A DNA stretch of 64,000 bases, taken from NCBI RefSeq assembly GCF_011045215.1, contig NZ_CP049201.1; one strand, given 5' to 3'. Shown one piece after another: positions 11,278 through 34,933 of the stretch. The notes under the pieces are model-generated. The model did not search any database, had not been told where the DNA came from, and saw only the letters and a list, made by a program, of their open reading frames with translations. Every line of letters starts with the position of its first letter. Positions within the stretch are counted from its first letter, which is position 1. A program made the position numbers and the translations under genes. Source of the DNA: Escherichia coli (GTDB lineage Bacteria; Pseudomonadota; Gammaproteobacteria; Enterobacterales; Enterobacteriaceae).

Positions 11278-11349
<72 letters not shown>

Positions 11350-11352
11350 ATA

Positions 11353-11428
<76 letters not shown>

Positions 11429-12144: not shown

Positions 12145-12687
12145 TCAAGCCATTTTTTGAGCAAATGATTCTCGCATGGGAATGTATAGCGCATACTCAG
12201 CAACAGCCAACCAATTAGCAATTCGCTTTTCGCATGTGCTAAAACACCACTCTGGGTGTGCATCATTTAGCAATTCAGCCATTTTTCGCTTAGTCATCCC
12301 CCGCCCCTCATAGCGTTGCCGGAGAATACAAATCAATCCCGGATGATCCGCCATAACTTCGCCAATAACTCTGTCGATTATTAATGCCTCTGAATCGGCA
12401 CAATGTGCCAGCCAGCTCTTTTGCTTGCCGTTAATCATATCCCGCAAAAAAGCCTCAAGTTCAGGCTTGTCCAGACCTGCTTTTTTCATCCTCCGGAGCG
12501 CCTCGTTAATTGCCGTTTTTGTCAGCTTTTTAGAGGTCAACATCTGGTTAAACATATTCCCTGTCTTACCGCCACCAATATACGACCAGCGCCCCCACAT
12601 ACGCAGTTTTCCCTGAATCCAGACACTTTCCAGCGTAGTGAGACGAAGGTGTTCTCCGCTTTTTCCTGTATTCGTTGGGTAAATCAC
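12145..12687 (-). CDS. putative late-gene antiterminator (Q-like), about 180 aa, GTG start
   Basis: Last gene before a promoter-terminator region, the tRNAs and the lysis cassette; GTG start with AAGGAGG Shine-Dalgarno 7 nt upstream; assignment is positional. Confidence 0.4.
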   Translation of the reverse strand: MIYPTNTGKSGEHLRLTTLESVWIQGKLRMWGRWSYIGGGKTGNMFNQMLTSKKLTKTAINEALRRMKKAGLDKPELEAFLRDMINGKQKSWLAHCADSEALIIDRVIGEVMADHPGLICILRQRYEGRGMTKRKMAELLNDAHPEWCFSTCEKRIANWLAVAEYALYIPMRESFAQKMA

Positions 12688-12974
12688 AAATATCCCTCCT
12701 TTCTCCAGATTTCTTGTGTGCGAAAAACACCTTCTGCATGCATCAGGCGCAATTCTTCTTTGGTGTAATCGATGGTTTTTACTCTCCCGTCGATTAAATC
12801 GTGGCACGAGCTACAGGCAATCGCCGCCTGCATATCGTGTGGTTTTGTCGCTGTTCCACACGTCCCCGCCAGCCTGTAATGTGCCAGCACAGACGTTCCG
12901 GGATTGTGATTGCAGTAGCCAGGAATTCTGACCTGGCACATCTGGCCCCGCGCCGCTTTACGCAAATTCACCAT
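12684..12974 (-). CDS. DUF1364-family protein (YbcO-like putative nuclease), 96 aa
   Basis: Cys-rich motifs CQVRIPGYCN...HYRLAGTCGT...IACSSCHD as in lambdoid YbcO/NinG-region proteins. Confidence 0.55.
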   Translation of the reverse strand: MVNLRKAARGQMCQVRIPGYCNHNPGTSVLAHYRLAGTCGTATKPHDMQAAIACSSCHDLIDGRVKTIDYTKEELRLMHAEGVFRTQEIWRKEGYL

Positions 12975-14059: not shown

Positions 14060-14197
14060 TTACTCCTCAGGTTCGTAAGCTGTAAAGACAGCGACCTCCG
14101 TCTGACCGATTCGGATTTGTACCTCACAGAGGTCTTTCCTCGTTACCAGTGTCGTCACTATGACGGTTAAACAGATGACGATCAGGACGATTAACAT
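14060..14197 (-). CDS. hok: Hok/Gef-family type I toxin (RelF/HokD-like), 45 aa; not in the supplied ORF track
   Basis: Translation MLIVLIVICLTVIVTTLVTRKDLCEVQIRIGQTEVAVFTAYEPEE has the Hok signature: hydrophobic helix, then LCE...EVAVF...YE. Confidence 0.8.
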   Translation of the reverse strand: MLIVLIVICLTVIVTTLVTRKDLCEVQIRIGQTEVAVFTAYEPEE

Positions 14198-14654
14198 CAC
14201 CTTTTGCTACTTTATAGCCTGCTATGCCTTTCATGCATTCTTGGCTATACTAACCTTATACCTACAACACGAGAGACGCAGAAATGACCGTTCATGGCAT
14301 ATCAACAGGCAGTATCGTTCACTTACGTGAAAAAGATGGAGAATGGCTCGTAGTGCACATTCTTAATGACGACATTGTATATGTCCTCAAAAATGCAGAT
14401 TCAGGTGAAGAAATAAAAGTCACTCTTCAAGACATCAATACACCCAATAAATAATCCCTCCACAATCCCACGGGGGGTATTGTTCTTCTTATCATCACAA
14501 CCGCATCACACCACCAATTGCTCATTGCAGACAACACCCCAGCCATGCTACTCCTAAACGGTTTTATAGTGCTATAGCCCCGGATGTCTGTTGTCGTCAA
14601 CAGACATAACAAGCTAAAATAACAACACTCCCCAACAACGAAGGACTTAATACC

Positions 14655-14942
14655 ATGGCTCAGGTCTATTTTGATACTCTGAAATTCGTTGAAACCCTAG
14701 AAGCCGCCGGAATGCCTGCAGCACAAGCTCGCGCCATATCTGCTGCAGTAAAGGATTCTCACGAAGCGGCAGAAGTCGCTACAAAGCGCGACCTGAACGA
14801 TGTTAAAACTGAACTAAAAAATGACATTGCTGCCATTGATGCAAAAATTGATAAACTCACCCTGCAACTGACTGTCAGATTTGGCGGGATGCTCGTCGTT
14901 GCTGTTGGCGCACTGGCAGCCATCATGAAGCTACCTCTTTAA
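14655..14942 (+). CDS. DUF1640-like coiled-coil protein with C-terminal hydrophobic segment, 95 aa
   Basis: Plus-strand gene inside a minus-strand operon; AAGGA Shine-Dalgarno; followed by its own terminator. Confidence 0.5.
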   Translation: MAQVYFDTLKFVETLEAAGMPAAQARAISAAVKDSHEAAEVATKRDLNDVKTELKNDIAAIDAKIDKLTLQLTVRFGGMLVVAVGALAAIMKLPL

Positions 14943-14973
14943 AAAACCAGCCCTAATGGGCTGGCTTTTGTTA
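14941..14973. terminator. bidirectional rho-independent terminator
   Basis: ccagccc-taat-gggctgg hairpin flanked by an A-run upstream and a T-run downstream on the plus strand. Confidence 0.55.
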
Positions 14974-15050
14974 TCCCCAGCAGAAAATCGAATACACCAC
15001 CAGCGCCACCGCCATCGCAATTCCTGCCGTTGTGAATGCTTCAGGCCAGG

Positions 15051-15413
15051 TCATCGTAAAACATCCTCCACGCTTGTCAGTCCGTTTCGCTCCAGGTAGT
15101 CCATCGCCTTATCCGGCAATTTGCAGTCCGGCTTCGCTTTCCTCAGTTGCCAGGCTAACTGCTTTACCTGCATAGTTAACTCGTCGACCAGACGCTGATA
15201 CCCCACTGGTTTGTATTCATAAAATTTACCAACTGGCGCTGCTGCCAGCGATTGCAGTGCAATTTCCAGAACAGCAATATCCATCTTATATGCGCGAATG
15301 AGGTCATGGTCGATTGTGCCTGGTATGCACAGTCTCTGTGATTCAATAGCCTCCTCTGCGTGGGCTATTAACTGCTCTTTGGTAAACCGTTCTTCTTTGG
15401 TCAAAGTCGCCAT
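15051..15413 (-). CDS. hypothetical phage protein, 120 aa
   Basis: ORF in the nin-like block; no recognisable motif. Confidence 0.4.
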
Positions 15414-15587
15414 TTACTCTTCCACTTCGTCTTTTATTTCGTAAATTGAGTAATTGCAGTGATTAAAGAAAACATCAATTGCCTCGTTTTCTATTTCCTC
15501 AGGAGTCGCATCATCATCCACTTCAAATACATCTTCACGCACGTTACCAACAATCCTCGTTTCGATAACTATTTTGAATTTTCGCAT
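15414..15587 (-). CDS. small acidic hypothetical protein, about 57 aa
   Basis: Internal ATG (MRKFKIVIETR...); start uncertain. Confidence 0.3.
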   Translation of the reverse strand: MRKFKIVIETRIVGNVREDVFEVDDDATPEEIENEAIDVFFNHCNYSIYEIKDEVEE

Positions 15588-15713
15588 TGTCTTACCGCCC
15601 TTTCGGGCGGCCTCCTGATGTTTTGAGGGTGCAGAAATCCCTCCGGTTAAGGATTTAATAAAAATCACTTCTGATTTAAATTTCAGTGTCTTATTGTCAG
15701 TTTGTTTATCGCT

Positions 15714-16025
15714 TTATGCCTGAACCTTATTTCTCATCCATACACAAACCGGGCCGTCTTCCGTGTCATGAATGGAGCCAATAAACCACCCATCACCCTC
15801 TGGTCGTTCCGGCTCCCATGCGGAAATATCAGGACCATCCGCATCCGGATTAAAATCATCTTCATCCATTGCGCGAATGGTCCACTGAAGATTATTCGCC
15901 TTCATCCAGGCATTAAATTCTTCCGTCGAAATATACTCCCGGCCATCACAAAATTTTTCATATTCAGGATGTATCCAGCAGCCATATGCATCACGTTCTA
16001 CCGGCATTTCTTTGATTTCGTTCAT
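15714..16025 (-). CDS. hypothetical acidic phage protein, about 103 aa
   Basis: ORF in the nin-like block; internal start MNEIKEMPVERD assumed. Confidence 0.35.
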   Translation of the reverse strand: MNEIKEMPVERDAYGCWIHPEYEKFCDGREYISTEEFNAWMKANNLQWTIRAMDEDDFNPDADGPDISAWEPERPEGDGWFIGSIHDTEDGPVCVWMRNKVQA

Positions 16026-16038
16026 AACATTAACTCCA

Positions 16039-16221
16039 TTAAAATAATGCAAAACAAATTAACCACACCACTACAACCGATGCTATTAACACCCTGATTG
16101 CAAACAGTGGACTGATATGTCGAAAAGGATTTTCCCAGATAATAAAAGCCGCTGCCAGAAATGCACTGATCAGGAAAACAATAACAAACAGCTCAATTTT
16201 GATTATCCAGAACATATTCAC
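16039..16221 (-). CDS. small membrane protein, 60 aa
   Basis: Two hydrophobic helices; stop codon overlaps the upstream gene. Confidence 0.3.
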   Translation of the reverse strand: MNMFWIIKIELFVIVFLISAFLAAAFIIWENPFRHISPLFAIRVLIASVVVVWLICFALF

Positions 16222-16508
16222 TGCATCGCCTTCTGTAAAATAACCGCATGCCCCAGCTTCTCCGCCAGTGCCAGTTCTGCCCTAGCACCTGCCGACCGCT
16301 GCCAGTCTTTCAGCATGTAAATCGCATCCACGCAGCGAATCATTGCCATGCAAATATCCATGTAGTGCGGCTGCGTCAGTCCGTCCGGAAGTACTGCCGG
16401 ATTTAAGACTGTGTGCCCATCCCGTTTCAGTTCCTCTTCCGCCTTGTGGAACGCCTCACGGTTGAAATTTTCATAGCCCGTCATTGGACCGGCGATATAA
16501 ACCCTCAC
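16218..16508 (-). CDS. DUF4406-like protein (nucleoside 2-deoxyribosyltransferase-like fold), 96 aa
   Basis: MRVYIAGPMTG...N...AF motif typical of the DUF4406 / deoxyribosyltransferase-like family. Confidence 0.5.
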   Translation of the reverse strand: MRVYIAGPMTGYENFNREAFHKAEEELKRDGHTVLNPAVLPDGLTQPHYMDICMAMIRCVDAIYMLKDWQRSAGARAELALAEKLGHAVILQKAMQ

Positions 16509-16786
16509 TCCAGAACCCTCCTGTTGAAATAAACGTAGTTATTCACTGTGCGCAACGGCATTCCGAATTTTCTGGCAATTTCTCTCCTGGACACGCCACG
16601 CTGATGCAACTGTCGCACCAGCTCAATATCGCTCTGCGGATATTTTGTTGACTGGTGATAATCACCACGCAACATCATGCCGATACCCAGTTCCCGTGCT
16701 TTCGCCCTGACCGCCGGCTCACTACGACCAATCAGACTGCCGATGCTGTCGACTGTCATCGTTCCCGCACACTGCCGGAGCACCAT
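16505..16786 (-). CDS. HTH DNA-binding phage protein, about 93 aa; start uncertain
   Basis: Two HTH-like segments (SIGSLIGRSEPAVRAKARELGIG and VSRREIARKFGMPLRTV). Confidence 0.35.
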   Translation of the reverse strand: MVLRQCAGTMTVDSIGSLIGRSEPAVRAKARELGIGMMLRGDYHQSTKYPQSDIELVRQLHQRGVSRREIARKFGMPLRTVNNYVYFNRRVLE

Positions 16787-16824: not shown

Positions 16825-17604
16825 CTACCGTTCTCCGGTGGCGATAATCTGTCTGACAATATCCTTGTGCCTGTACAGTTCCCGCAGCGCCGCGCAGACT
16901 CGCTCCCACTTCCGGACATGATTTTTCGCCCGACGCAGTTCGCGGTTTGCCATATGCAGTGATGGTAAAACCAGGTCATCAGCTCGCGTTTCAGTAAACG
17001 ATGGCAGCGAATGCACAATGTCCGCCACAGTTTCTGTTTTAATATCTTCCTGTGTTGCAGCCTCCTGTACTGGTAACGCAACACATGCAGGTTGAGGAAA
17101 GGCTTTACCATCAGTTTCCGCTACCGATGCAGCTTTCGGCTCTGCTGGTAAATTATCGCCCGGCATGCAGTAACGAAATTTACCGTTCTGATTAACGCGA
17201 ATCAGACGACCTTTACTGATTGCCATTGCCAGCGTTGAAGCCACTTTGCGTGATGTGGTGCCGAAAAACGTAGCCAGTTCATCCGCCGTTTGTGGGCCAC
17301 GTTGTTCAATCGTCGCAGTTAAATCGCACTCCGAAATTTTCGCGACTGTTGCCGTGGCGGTTTCTTCCGGCAGTTCTGCCTGCTCTGGCTGTTCCTGCTG
17401 AACGTTGTTATCAGCCACACGCCAGGTGTATACGCTTTTATCAACGAAACCAGCCTTTTTCAGTTCCCACAGCTCGTTCAGTACCTCTTCACGACTGATA
17501 TCAAGTCGCGCAGCCAGTTCTACCGACGTGGCTTTTCCCATTGCTTTCAGTGCGTCAAAAACAGTCTCCATTAAAATTTCCTCCCGGTAAAAATCACTTC
17601 GCAA
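16825..17604 (-). CDS. hypothetical phage protein (YdaW / DUF1627-like position), 259 aa
   Basis: N-terminal winged-helix-like region; directly downstream of the DnaC-like gene as ydaW is in Rac. Confidence 0.4.
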
Positions 17605-18340
17605 TTCCTAGCTGGACGACATTCGGACGCCAGCTCTCCCAGTTAAAATTCACCCATCGCCCGCCGTTCATGGTCATGCGATCCATAATCCTCTCGCCGA
17701 GCAATGTTTTCATGGCCTCATAGTTCAGGTTTGTCAGCATCCCCACGCTGCGCATCGACGCTGTCCGGCGATCAACAATCTGGTGCAGCACCACCAGCTC
17801 GTTTTTTGTCTCGCGCTGAATGCCAATTTCATCAAGAACCAGCAGATCCACTTCGCACAGTTCCCGCAAAAATTTTTCGCCTGATTTCCCGTCGTCATAG
17901 CTGGCGTGTAGAGCACTCATGACATCAGCCACGGTAACCACAATCACTGTCTGGCCATCTTTCAGCAGGCGATTCCCGATTGCCGCCGCCAGATGGTTTT
18001 TTCCGGTACCAGGTTTTCCGCTGAACGCAAAATTTGTACACCCGGTCATCAGTTCATCAGCGATAGATTTCGCCTGGCTCAACGCGTATCGCTGGCCGTC
18101 GTTCTGCACCAGGTAATTCGCAAACGAGCATTTGCGGTGCAACAGCTGGATGCCGGAGCGATTCAGGATTTTTTCCACCCGCAACTGACGATTCTGACGG
18201 TTGATCTCCTCACAACGTTTCTGGCCTTCTACAAGTTGCCACTCGCGCCACTCCGCCACCGTCCTGAATGGCGCGGTTACATGTGACGGGGCCAGTCTGC
18301 GGATACGTTCCAGAACGCCGCCTGTCGCAATATTTTTCAT
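17594..18340 (-). CDS. ydaV: DnaC-like replication helicase loader (IstB-type AAA ATPase), 248 aa
   Basis: Walker [16 protein letters not shown] and Walker B LLVLDEIG; downstream of the O-like gene; length matches Rac YdaV. Confidence 0.7.
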
Positions 18341-18346
18341 GGTCAG

Positions 18347-19153
18347 TTACCCCCTGAAGCCTGGCGGGATCGCACTGTCCGGCAACGAGACGGTGTTAAC
18401 CTGTCGAGGCAGCATCTCCGGTCGAACGCCTTTCGGTGCGAACAAACCCTGGTATTCATTGGCGATGCTGTGTCGAATCACCTGCTCAGGGGTAAAACCC
18501 TGCTGGCGGAATTTTTCCAGTTCCCGTATCGCCCCGTTAGCGCCCTGCTCTGTTCGAATCGGTTTTCGCAATGCCTGGCGAAATTCAACCCACTCACGCC
18601 AAAGCGAGACAGAAATCCAGTTCGGCAAAGCAATATCCAGAGGGTCAAACTTTTTGACACCTCGATTCCCCCGGGGGGGATTTAGGGGGGGATCTGTTTT
18701 TAGATCTTTATCTGTATCTTTATTAGTTGCCTTTGTGTTGGCATCATGTTCAAACACTGCTCCAACTTCTGTTTGAACACCTGTTAAATTTCTCTCTTGT
18801 TTTGTTTGAACATCTGCTTCCTTTCTGCTTCTTCTGGCCTGAACAGATGCTTTTCCGGCGGCTGATTTTTTGGTTAATTTTTCCCTGACTGAAGCCAGAT
18901 CTTCCTCAATCCGAAGATGCACCCATTCGTCGCCGTTATCGCAAAAAAACTCCCGCAAGGATGGTTCAACATCAGCCCATCGCTCGTTAGTCAGACGAGC
19001 AATTTTTGCCAGCCTGTTTTTGGGTATTGGCTTTCCTGTTTGCCAGTAATTGAACATCAGCAACAAATACGCACCGTGCTCCTCTGCTGACAAATGCATG
19101 GTGTCAGCCAAGTAATCAGCTATGTACAGTTGCATATATGGTAATGCGGCCAT
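18347..19153 (-). CDS. ydaU: replication initiation (O-like / DUF1376) protein
   Basis: N-terminal YMQLYIADYLADTMHLSAEEHGAYLLLM motif; position upstream of the DnaC-like loader; start taken at internal MAALPYMQ. Confidence 0.55.
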   Translation of the reverse strand: MAALPYMQLYIADYLADTMHLSAEEHGAYLLLMFNYWQTGKPIPKNRLAKIARLTNERWADVEPSLREFFCDNGDEWVHLRIEEDLASVREKLTKKSAAGKASVQARRSRKEADVQTKQERNLTGVQTEVGAVFEHDANTKATNKDTDKDLKTDPPLNPPRGNRGVKKFDPLDIALPNWISVSLWREWVEFRQALRKPIRTEQGANGAIRELEKFRQQGFTPEQVIRHSIANEYQGLFAPKGVRPEMLPRQVNTVSLPDSAIPPGFRG

Positions 19154-19232
19154 AACTGCCTCATCTGGTGCCGAACCTTCCTCCGGATATAATCTGTGAT
19201 TCCCCAATCAACAGAACCAAAGGAGGTTCGAC

Positions 19233-19484: not shown

Positions 19485-19787
19485 TCACCCCCTAAAAATT
19501 ACGTGGCGCAGCGGTTGAGCTTTGCTGTAGTCGATCTCATCGCCATACTCAATATCAAGAGCTTGTCCCTGCGCCAGTTCCATCCACCGAATGTGATCTG
19601 CGGCTTTTTCTTTATCTTTGATATTGATGAACAACAGCGTTGACGAGGGATACCCGTTAACAAGATGGCGATGCAGAGAGAGTCGTATCGCATACCAGGC
19701 AACATTTCGGGCTATACGCTGAAGCAATGTTTCGGCTTCCAGTGTTTTAAGTCGGTATTTTTTCAGTTCATATTTTTCCATCACCAC
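19485..19787 (-). CDS. hypothetical protein, 100 aa
   Basis: ORF with AAGGTGA Shine-Dalgarno; lies between the ydaT-like and O-like genes where Rac has none. Confidence 0.4.
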   Translation of the reverse strand: MVMEKYELKKYRLKTLEAETLLQRIARNVAWYAIRLSLHRHLVNGYPSSTLLFINIKDKEKAADHIRWMELAQGQALDIEYGDEIDYSKAQPLRHVIFRG

Positions 19788-26629: not shown

Positions 26630-26856
26630 GCGCAGCCACAAAGCTCACAGGAGAAAAACCAGTGCGATACACAAAAATTAAACCATGTCCATTTTGTGGT
26701 TGTCCATCAGTAACGGTGAAAGCCATTTCAGGATATTACCGAGCGAAGTGTAACGGATGCGAATCCCGAACCGGTTATGGTGGAAGTGAAAAGGAAGCAC
26801 TCGAAAGATGGAATAAACGAACCACTGGAAATAATAATGGAGGTGTTCATGTATAA
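26620..26856 (+). CDS. ralR: RalR-like restriction-alleviation protein / type I toxin
   Basis: [48 protein letters not shown] matches Rac RalR. Confidence 0.7.
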
Positions 26857-27037
26857 AATTACCGCCACTATTGAAAAGGAAGGTGGCACTCCTACTAACT
26901 GGACAAGATATTCAAAATCTAAACTAACGAAATCAGAATGCGAAAAAATGCTCTCAGGTAAAAAAGAAGCGGGCGTTTCCAGAGAGCAGAAAGTAAAACT
27001 GATAAATTTTAATTGCGAGAAACTTCAGTCCTGGTGA
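26837..27037 (+). CDS. ydaC: YdaC-like small protein; start uncertain
   Basis: [23 protein letters not shown]...; position between ralR and xis as in Rac. Confidence 0.5.
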   Translation: MEVFMYKITATIEKEGGTPTNWTRYSKSKLTKSECEKMLSGKKEAGVSREQKVKLINFNCEKLQSW

Positions 27038-31338: not shown

Positions 31339-31459
31339 AAAAAAAAGCCGACTCATCAAAGTCGGCGTCGTACGAATCAATTGTGCTATGCAGTAATTCA
31401 AAAAAGGAAGTAAGACAATATGGAGCGCAACGCCCATCGCTTGACGTTGCATTCACCTG
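31339..31459 (-). ncRNA. fnrS: FnrS small RNA
   Basis: Reverse complement reads GCAGGTGAATGCAACGTCAAGCGATGGGCGTTGCGCTCC...GACGCCGACTTTGATGAGTCGGCTTTTTTTT with terminal hairpin; lies between zntB and dbpA as expected. Confidence 0.75.
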
Positions 31460-31555
31460 CAAGAGAGATATTGCCCTGAATGGGTAGAGAGTTTATTGAC
31501 TTCGCTCAAACTTTGCGGCGTTTTTGTATACAGACAGCCGGAAAAATTGCTTTTG

Positions 31556-34837: not shown

Positions 34838-34933
34838 ACCGGCGCAGAGGAGACAATGCCGGATTTAAGACGCGGATGCACTGCTGTGTGTACTGTAGAG
34901 TCTGGCGGATGTCGACAGACTCTATTTTTTTAT
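34838..34933 (+). ncRNA. mcaS: McaS (IsrA) small RNA
   Basis: ACCGGCGCAGAGGAGACAATGCCGGATTTAAGACGCGGATGCACTGCTGTGTGTACTGTAGAGTCTGGCGGATGTCGACAGACTCTATTTTTTTAT between smrA and abgR. Confidence 0.7.

Follow-up and report, generated by a model that had tools for sequence, protein, structure and literature searches.

The minus-strand block of small genes at positions 15051-16786 is likely to be an exchangeable cargo segment of the early rightward operon that leads from the replication genes to Q in a Rac-type lambdoid prophage of E. coli. Within the window, the 64,000-nucleotide stretch of DNA that we analysed, we confirmed six tightly packed ORFs of 93, 96, 60, 103, 57 and 120 amino acids (here denoted F93, E96, D60, C103, B57 and A120), and the original prediction of six small minus-strand ORFs between replication and Q was right in both coordinates and location. 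Its description as a cluster of six genes stands only in part: the six ORFs are real, while a seventh, the 27-codon ORF mini27, had been left uncounted and the word cluster overstates functional linkage. As we picture it, the segment would be bounded upstream by DUF1627/ydaW and downstream by mini27 and an intrinsic terminator, with six to seven small genes that are translationally coupled or closely spaced and whose arrangement suggests that, once the prophage is induced or a cell infected, they are transcribed together with the replication genes. Five modules (F-E, D, C, B with its leader, and the A tail with mini27) would be swapped independently among prophages, and their overall role may be a non-essential modulation of host or phage development.

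Gene content and limits of the block

On the replication side the block is preceded by DUF1376 O-like, IstB/DnaC-like and DUF1627 genes, assigned by Pfam, and on the other side it is followed by a Q-like DUF1133 gene. YbcO, DUF1367 and Q-like genes are found further downstream, outside the six-gene finding. The DUF1627 (YdaW-type) gene, which is context and not part of the finding (16825-17604, minus strand; Pfam DUF1627, 5.4e-96), forms the conserved upstream boundary of the variable block. It is found upstream of the block at all E. coli loci examined except one (L015), in which the position is taken by a DUF977 gene and an HTH gene, and it is also present in 55 of the 120 IMG/VR contigs carrying mini27.

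The packing is operon-like. F93 (16505-16786) overlaps E96 (16218-16508) by 4 nucleotides and E96 overlaps D60 (16039-16221) by the same length; D60 and C103 (15714-16025) are 13 nucleotides apart, and B57 (15414-15587) is adjacent to A120 (15051-15413), all on the minus strand. The sole real gap in the block, of 126 nucleotides, separates C103 from B57. Pairwise comparison with homologous loci gave pN/pS values of 0.08-0.48 for A120, B57, C103, E96 and F93, and five of the six proteins have a family match in Pfam or PHROG. Judged by these sequence comparisons, the six ORFs are more than chance and purifying selection acts on all of them. The 99.8% identical E. coli RefSeq record NZ_AP042701 annotates five of the six, leaving out D60. 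An NCBIfam scan of the six proteins returned nothing useful, and Rfam, run over the whole window, had no match inside the six-gene block. Longer forms of three ORFs (F, 134 aa; C, 112 aa; B, 84 aa) were rejected because the extensions overlap the upstream gene or their frame is not conserved. An antisense ORF of 131 aa (15702-16097, plus strand) was treated as spurious, the substitution patterns fitting the minus-strand frames.

D60, the least secure of the six, is probably the gene of a protein with two transmembrane helices. Its GTG start overlaps the stop codon of E96 (58 aa are counted from the ATG), an SD-like GAAGG is located 7 nucleotides before the GTG, and the ORF exactly fills the 192-nucleotide space between E96 and C103. 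The product has a GRAVY of 1.85 and two hydrophobic segments that give a clear two-helix hydropathy profile. D60 has one diverged homologue, an 82%-identical copy at locus L006 (80% at the amino acid level) that stands behind another gene; the reading frame is preserved across 12 synonymous codon differences, and pN/pS is 0.28-0.35. These observations have to be set against a somewhat unlikely reading in which D60 is not a gene and this stretch is a 183-nucleotide spacer or RNA element, open by chance. Such a reading would fit the lack of annotation in the complete RefSeq genomes examined (L001-L004 included), the small number of protein clusters (four out of 5.8 billion), of which P0003 and P0004 are frameshifted at the C-terminus, and the DNA of D60, which is 100% identical at loci where the flanking genes are 91-96% identical. 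Rfam, which showed no match over D60, argues against an RNA element. The ORF is also rare, being found in only 15 of 5426 complete E. coli genomes, and some NCBI records call it 'hypothetical protein'.

The block is closed by mini27 and a terminator, parts of it that the first reading of the sequence had missed. The conserved ORF mini27 (14971-15054, minus strand) encodes a single hydrophobic helix. Its start codon and the stop codon of A120 overlap (ATGA), a GGAGG lies 10 nucleotides upstream, and both the SD sequence and the overlap are kept in two unrelated upstream contexts. Queried with 251 nucleotides that took in the A120 tail, mini27 and the terminator, 1277 of 5426 complete E. coli genomes gave a match; in many of them the match was confined to the micro-ORF (93-96% identity), which there follows non-homologous DUF551 genes. 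Among 120 IMG/VR contigs chosen by exact match to the mini27 core, 112 have an intact 27-aa ORF. Most codons show synonymous variation; gene calls include mini27 as a 27-aa protein in 79 contigs, and in Shigella it is fused to DUF551. We infer that both D60 and mini27 are translated, presumably as small inner-membrane peptides; standard annotation usually skips these two small membrane ORFs. In about a quarter of complete E. coli genomes mini27 marks the end of the variable block, and a conserved role for it in regulation or at the membrane is a smaller possibility.

The bidirectional intrinsic terminator (14947-14964, assigned to neither strand), detected by a terminator scan and RNA folding, reads AAAAGCCAGCCC-AUUA-GGGCUGGUUUUUU and folds at -19.8 kcal/mol into a 12-bp stem with a U-run (z = -2.9). 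It ends both the minus-strand block and a converging plus-strand gene at 14655-14942; at other loci, different terminator-like sequences follow mini27. The segment past the terminator is a moron-type area, which holds hok here and ParDE or methyltransferases in other strains.

Exchange of genes between related prophages

The region is hypervariable, as the original prediction had proposed. Of 5426 complete E. coli genomes, 6 have the exact six-gene arrangement and 2877 have some part of it, and 11 annotated E. coli or phage loci hold different gene sets between the same flanks. In 55 IMG/VR viral contigs containing both flanks we counted 19 presence/absence combinations of the six genes, with cassette lengths of 1.1-3.5 kb, and all six were found together in only two contigs, indicating that these are independently exchanged accessory genes and not a system. 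F93 and E96 are adjacent and overlapping at several loci, so this pair may be functionally linked; elsewhere E follows DUF977.

The closest comparison is with Rac-SA53 (KU052037) and Rac-type prophages, which share with the window the order dicA/dicC-type switch, ydaT, replication genes, ydaW, variable small-gene block, hok, DUF1367, ybcO and Q. Within the Rac-SA53 block, rac19 is a DUF4406 gene whose product is 91.5% identical in amino acids and rac22 is a C103 homologue (76.7%), whereas lygF (DUF977) takes the position of F93, and an ead gene together with rac21 takes that of D60. B57 and A120 are missing from it and IS1 is present; no function has been described for any gene of its variable block. 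Close homologues of A120 (86% aa identity) and B57 (72%) lie in a different setting, the early-left (exo-xis) region of the Stx phage ArgO145, among ead/Ea22-like genes.

The block occupies the same replication-to-Q position as the nin region of lambda, P22 and Sf6, and like it consists of many small, non-essential, mosaic genes with internal terminators (PMC5630979). The genes themselves are different: none of the six proteins matched the Pfam families of NinB, NinG, RusA or other lambda Nin proteins at E<=0.01, in line with the earlier statement that classical nin genes are not represented. The block is a typical mosaic lambdoid accessory segment, near-identical copies of which are already in public genomes, and as found it matters little. 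The variable slot is cleanly defined, from DUF1627 to the micro-ORF and terminator, and can be mined systematically for accessory genes.

Predicted properties of the encoded proteins

For all six proteins, close homologues that have been characterised are missing, as are the well-characterised housekeeping relatives that would have spoken against the original prediction. Its assignments of a 60-aa membrane protein, a DUF4406 protein and an HTH protein were borne out by hydropathy, by Pfam, and by HTH_23 together with PDB entry 2lvs, respectively.

E96 starts at a GTG that overlaps the stop codon of F93, with AGGAGG upstream, and belongs to Pfam DUF4406 (128 bits against a cutoff of 22; profile positions 1-90 of 91). 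Its structure model, which is confident, suggests a minimal N-deoxyribosyltransferase/DNPH1/MilB-like protein of the NDT-type Rossmann-like alpha/beta fold, a fold that NDTs have in common with TIR and ThsB domains. E78 aligns with the Glu of the G-T-x-x-E motif in TbPDT (2a0k) and in a CMP N-glycosidase (4jen), which we take to be the nucleophile of both, and is kept in 56 of 58 DUF4406 members. Y4 of the VYIAGP segment corresponds to the Tyr (Y-x-A-G) with which strand 1 ends in 2a0k, where the segment reads IYIAGP; among the 58 sequences this column holds Y in 49 and F in 7. S72 is invariant (58/58) and aligns with a Ser of 4jen and an Asp of 2a0k. The Asn taken as the triad residue of TbPDT appears to align with C53 in the profile alignment, and the nearby D51 is present in only 23 of the 58 sequences. 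The catalytic triad of NDTs has been defined, and hydrolases are reported to lack the charged 5'-OH ligand found in transferases (PMC12884076).

Since E96 keeps the catalytic Glu and Tyr together with a hydrolase-type Ser, our best guess is a nucleotide N-glycosidase, a minimal NDT-superfamily hydrolase resembling DNPH1, MilB and DmtZ. The most likely activity, to which we assign roughly even chances, would be hydrolysis of the N-glycosidic bond of a 5'-phosphorylated nucleotide and not deoxyribose transfer. Where 52 of the 58 relatives have a Gly, this allele has an Asp, and because of this atypical residue E96 may be a binder or perform other chemistry. It is also smaller than DNPH1/Rcl, MilB/BlsM and DmtZ (96 aa versus about 135-165). 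DUF4406 proteins are ~60 residues shorter than NDTs, without the NDT C-terminal segment; unlike DNPH1/Rcl, MilB/BlsM and DmtZ they appear to have no conserved middle Asp/Asn, and they have invariant residues of their own (F20, P41 and Y49). The family is large, with about 11,000 clusters at 50% identity, and in the literature searched DUF4406 proteins receive incidental mentions only, no activity being shown for any of them.

F93 is a basic protein (pI 10.6) that resembles a two-HTH DNA binder and is predicted to bind DNA through both units. Its start is ambiguous, an ATG at 16786 giving 93 aa and an ATG at 16759 giving 84 aa; RefSeq calls it 'DNA-binding protein' and chooses one or the other start depending on the genome. 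Pfam HTH_23 scored 25.2 bits against a cutoff of 24.6 with the 134-aa form of the ORF, other HTH families remaining below cutoff, and the protein matches phrog_323 'transcriptional regulator' (4.6e-26). pN/pS is 0.30-0.37. An alignment with 2lvs, a 105-aa two-HTH protein, covers both HTH units and the linker (E 6.3e-5). The entry, titled only 'putative uncharacterized protein' in the PDB, is presumably the archaeal CRISPR-repeat-binding protein Cbp2. Being only distantly related to F93 and unrelated in its biology, it supports the architecture of F93 only and no target.

C103 and B57 are small and very acidic. Proteins of this type usually act by binding another macromolecule, and the two are perhaps macromolecule binders as well. 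C103 (pI 4.2) is a phage protein that is spread over unrelated phage types in many Proteobacteria. It carries a near-invariant C-terminal motif, W-x-P-x-x-P-x-G-D-G-W-F-I-G-S-I-H-D-T-E-D-G-P-V-C-V-W, and its structure model, which is confident, appears to have no known fold relative; ten longer proteins with C103-related segments contained no informative Pfam domains as fusion partners. B57 (17 D+E against 6 K+R, pI 4.2) belongs to Pfam DUF7167 (3.4e-9; 37.1 bits against a cutoff of 24.4) and to phrog_1997 (2.2e-21), with pN/pS of 0.28-0.47. The frame of its 84-aa, GTG-extended form is not conserved at other loci. B57 has no sequence relative in the PDB, and DUF7167 was not mentioned in the literature searched.

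B57 is preceded by a conserved leader (15595-15616, minus strand) in which AGGAGG (15616-15611) is followed by the hairpin CCGCCC-GAAA-GGGCGG (15610-15595), ending 7 nucleotides before the ATG. The 141-nucleotide intergenic region that contains it folds with z = -2.95. The leader travels with the gene at six loci, including the exo-xis region of ArgO145; across the six, the hairpin shows no compensatory changes.

A120 is helical and probably contains a coiled coil (designed coiled coils were matched by residues 74-94), which is predicted to be combined with a promiscuous C-terminal tail. It matches phrog_660 (3.3e-37), best in its C-terminal stretch, and no Pfam family, Ead_Ea22 included; pN/pS is 0.29-0.48. 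The last ~48 residues are a tail common to many otherwise unrelated prophage proteins. In a large database the tail alone (~40% coverage, ~80% identity) is joined to DUF551, Ead_Ea22 and other N-termini, and the last 48 aa are 52% identical to one PGAP 'ead/Ea22-like' protein. Lambda Ea22 was rejected as a model of A120 (BLASTP E 25; no match to the solved Ea22 C-terminal domain). A pro-lysogenic role has been reported for Ea22 (PMC10834534); it cannot be transferred to A120, which has no detectable similarity to lambda Ea22.

Other readings of the block

The original prediction placed the genes in a known hotspot of anti-defence and host-takeover genes, but our results point to neither role specifically. 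The literature consulted does not describe the region so: nin genes are reported to be diverse, dispensable in the laboratory and incompletely understood in function, and no anti-defence hotspot is mentioned (PMC5630979). That the block is an anti-defence island, with at least one small protein inhibiting a host immune system, is speculation and in our judgement unlikely. The acidic B57 and C103 could act as protein or DNA-mimic inhibitors, and E96, with its TIR- and ThsB-related fold, could destroy a nucleotide-derived immune signal or substrate; the genes are early by position, small, non-essential-looking, patchy and rapidly exchanged, and C103 crosses phage types. None of this is positive evidence, as the same features fit any accessory gene. 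PADLOC, which covers defence genes only, left five of the proteins without a match and gave F93 just a 17-bit HTH-level match, and the literature on the nin region and on prophage deoxyribosyltransferases contained no counter-defence link. It is doubtful, too, that F93 and E96, perhaps with others, aid phage DNA synthesis, for example by acting on the dNMP pool by analogy with DmtZ, a phage NDT-like enzyme able to act on dAMP (PMC12884076). Theirs would then be a housekeeping role and not one in conflict. Immediately upstream of the genes are the replication genes and DUF1627, and DUF4406 is present in 516 phage records, frequently under the name nucleoside deoxyribosyltransferase, with some matches lying under features named dCMP deaminase, MazG-like pyrophosphohydrolase or exonuclease. 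However, most related prophages with the same replication genes lack E96 and F93, the neighbouring genes examined include none of a modified-base pathway, and the fusion partners of DUF4406 in 38 longer proteins carry no informative Pfam domains and none of nucleotide metabolism.

The two small hydrophobic proteins, D60 and mini27, and perhaps others, might instead be expressed in the lysogen from promoters of their own, altering the envelope or blocking superinfection, and the adjoining moron-type segment would suit such exclusion or fitness factors. We consider this very unlikely. A promoter scan found 7 promoter-like sites where 6.0 were expected, a chance level that makes no case for independent moron promoters, and both ORFs overlap the preceding stop codon, which indicates coupled translation within the operon. 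The cargo-segment reading leaves two testable leads in large uncharacterised families, a DUF4406 nucleotide N-glycosidase and a new fold in the C103 family. It would be a long shot for DUF4406 to prove a minimal nucleotide N-glycosidase of temperate phages in conflict with the host, where it could for example break down an immune signal derived from nucleotides, or a nucleotide that is toxic or modified, or for an acidic orphan to prove a new inhibitor of host defence. C103, whose predicted fold is without a solved relative and whose SIHDTEDGP motif is invariant, is the stronger inhibitor candidate.

Layout and mosaicism of the six-ORF block

A lambdoid prophage lies in the E. coli chromosomal DNA of the window, and the RalA antitoxin sRNA (26855-27033, minus strand; Rfam, 217 bits) marks it as Rac-type. 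Rfam matches to the chromosomal sRNAs FnrS (31343-31460, minus strand) and McaS (34838-34933, plus strand) show the start of the chromosomal flank. The prophage shares its backbone with phage Rac-SA53, and among public sequences that of E. coli OkiPb01716 (NZ_AP042701) comes closest, with 99.8% identity across 1951 nt. On the minus strand, a YdaT-family gene is followed by a DUF1376 O-like gene (18347-19207), an IstB/DnaC-like loader (17594-18340), a DUF1627/YdaW gene (16825-17604) and six small ORFs. Beyond these lie, in order, a converging plus-strand gene, hok, DUF1367, YbcO/DUF1364, a DUF1133 Q-like gene (12145-12807, minus strand) and two minus-strand tRNA genes (11278-11428), tRNA-Gly and tRNA-Thr by annotation of a near-identical genome.

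The observation of six small minus-strand ORFs at 15051-16786 is confirmed and extended. They are F93, an HTH protein (16505-16786), E96, a DUF4406 protein (16218-16508), D60, a putative membrane protein (16039-16221), C103 (15714-16025), B57 (15414-15587) and A120 (15051-15413), the numbers giving lengths in residues. F93/E96 and E96/D60 overlap by 4 nt (GTGA), 13 nt separate D60 from C103, B57 and A120 are adjacent, and most starts have a Shine-Dalgarno-like sequence. RefSeq annotates five of the six in NZ_AP042701. Comparison with homologous loci gave pN/pS values of 0.08-0.23 for C103, 0.13-0.18 for E96, 0.30-0.37 for F93, 0.28-0.47 for B57 and 0.29-0.48 for A120.

The six genes are not one system. 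Among 5426 complete genomes, 2877 carry some part of the block and six the exact arrangement. The hypervariability proposed in the original prediction was borne out by eleven annotated loci with the same flanks and different gene sets, and by 55 IMG/VR contigs, namely those with both DUF1627 and the micro-ORF described below, where the interval between these two spans 1.1-3.5 kb and the six genes occur in 19 presence/absence combinations (the complete set in only two). Alternative contents of the slot include DUF977/LygF, DUF4752, DUF4014, DUF551, HNH endonuclease, SAM methyltransferase and Ea22-like genes. Stx phage ArgO145 carries close homologues of A120 and B57 in its exo-xis (early-left) region, and the last ~48 residues of A120 are joined to many unrelated N-termini. 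The same mosaic behaviour is long familiar from genes of the nin region, which are reported to be diverse, dispensable under laboratory conditions and little understood (PMC5630979). The best-supported reading is that the block is a cargo slot of the early-right operon, whose accessory genes are exchanged independently of one another.

A micro-ORF and terminator closing the block

The list of six genes was correct and incomplete, missing a micro-ORF and a terminator. The A120 stop codon sits inside ATGA, whose ATG starts a hydrophobic ORF of 27 codons, mini27 (14971-15054, minus strand), with GGAGG 10 nt upstream and a textbook bidirectional terminator after it (14947-14964). Mini27 is far more widespread than any one of the six genes. 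Of 5426 complete genomes, 1277 matched a 251-nt query comprising the A120 tail, mini27 and the terminator; in many, O157:H7 among them, the match is limited to mini27 (93-96% identity). There it directly follows a non-homologous DUF551 gene, which likewise finishes with ATGA and supplies an AGGAGG of its own. The ORF is intact in 112 of 120 IMG/VR contigs; most codons show synonymous variants, and the sequence downstream is of several kinds. Because these contigs were chosen by exact match to the mini27 core, the conserved core cannot itself count as independent evidence. The Shine-Dalgarno sequence and ATGA overlap, kept in unrelated contexts, are independent evidence. Gene calls on 79 contigs include mini27 as a 27-aa protein. 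The 121-aa "DUF551 domain-containing proteins" of Shigella share its 90% cluster, so mini27 appears to be fused there in frame to the upstream DUF551 gene.

Products of the six genes

E96 is a strong match to Pfam DUF4406, a family that comprises about 11,000 representative clusters (E<=1e-3) and appears in 516 phage records, for which nucleoside deoxyribosyltransferase is the usual label. In the PDB, the family profile reached CMP N-glycosidases and TbPDT (E 0.0013), pairing Y4 with the Tyr of strand 1, E78 with the conserved Glu in G-T-x-x-E, and S72 with the hydrolase Ser, where the transferase has Asp. Among 58 DUF4406 relatives S72 is invariant and E78 nearly so. The superfamily triad is Tyr/Asp(Asn)/Glu, and hydrolases have uncharged residues in place of charged 5'-OH ligands (PMC12884076); by these alignments E96 fits the pattern of a putative nucleotide hydrolase. 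As caveats, no conserved residue corresponds to the middle member of the triad, E96 is ~60 residues shorter than NDTs, and codon 68 (16305-16307) is Asp in the window allele and OkiPb01716, Gly in other E. coli alleles and in 52 of the 58 relatives. Lying four residues before Ser72, the Asp change may alter the predicted activity. The literature on DUF4406 yielded no activity for any member. The sole characterised phage enzyme of the wider superfamily that the analysis found was DmtZ, a dAMP hydrolase/phosphodeoxyribosyl transferase (PMC12884076).

The original interpretation, of a hypervariable region where anti-defence and host-takeover genes accumulate, was partly supported: the accessory genes are variable, and nothing in this analysis points specifically to anti-defence. 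Defence-system models gave no meaningful match, and literature on the nin region and prophage deoxyribosyltransferases gave no link. An anti-defence role for at least one gene is unlikely, and E96 has about the same likelihood of being a helper in nucleotide metabolism. We regard the cargo slot as an ordinary mosaic stretch of accessory genes, which offers a few modest leads that can be tested.

D60 is the doubtful member of the six, yet probably a real gene. It occurs in 15 of 5426 complete E. coli genomes, is unannotated in all four inspected, and is represented by only four clusters among 5.8 billion database proteins, two with a frameshifted C-terminus. Its product has two clear hydrophobic helices. 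The single diverged homologue, behind a DUF977 gene on a metagenomic contig, stays in frame, with 12 codons changed synonymously and 14 non-synonymously (pN/pS 0.35, or 0.28 over the stretch aligned by BLAST). D60 DNA (16039-16221) is 100% identical in the homologous loci L002 and L003, and the flanking E96 and C103 show ~91-96% nucleotide identity; this sharply bounded mosaic patch suggests recent exchange of that segment alone.

F93 is basic, and its alignment covers both HTH units of PDB 2lvs. Its homologue in locus L005 (NZ_CM168017; 5265-5582 of the locus; 68% aa identity), named "HAD family hydrolase" by PGAP, looks like a misannotated HTH protein. C103 belongs to an unnamed family (phrog_1372; 137 clusters) whose 45 phage records span very different types, with a near-invariant C-terminal motif; its confident predicted model (pLDDT 88.4) found no relative among solved structures. 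B57 (DUF7167) is very acidic, and its AGGAGG-hairpin-AUG leader is conserved wherever it occurs. A120 was rejected as a relative of lambda Ea22, to which it has no similarity, although proteins sharing its tail bear the label "Ea22-like".

Neighbouring genes

Between the YdaT-like and O-like genes lies a 100-aa minus-strand ORF (19485-19787) with no Pfam match. At this point the closest genome carries another replication module, with replication protein P and a DnaT-like gene, placing a module boundary nearby. The converging 95-aa plus-strand gene (14655-14942), hypothetical in RefSeq, shares the terminator with the block; its N-terminus weakly matches CCDC90-like/DUF1640 (E 3.3e-7, under cutoff), and its C-terminus is hydrophobic. 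A 56-aa plus-strand ORF (14284-14454) has no family match. Just past the terminator is a Hok/Gef-family type I toxin gene (14060-14200, minus strand; Pfam HOK_GEF, 1.9e-21), beside which no Sok-like antisense RNA reached the Rfam gathering threshold. ParDE or a cytosine methyltransferase occupies this site in other strains, so it looks like a second, moron-type variable slot.
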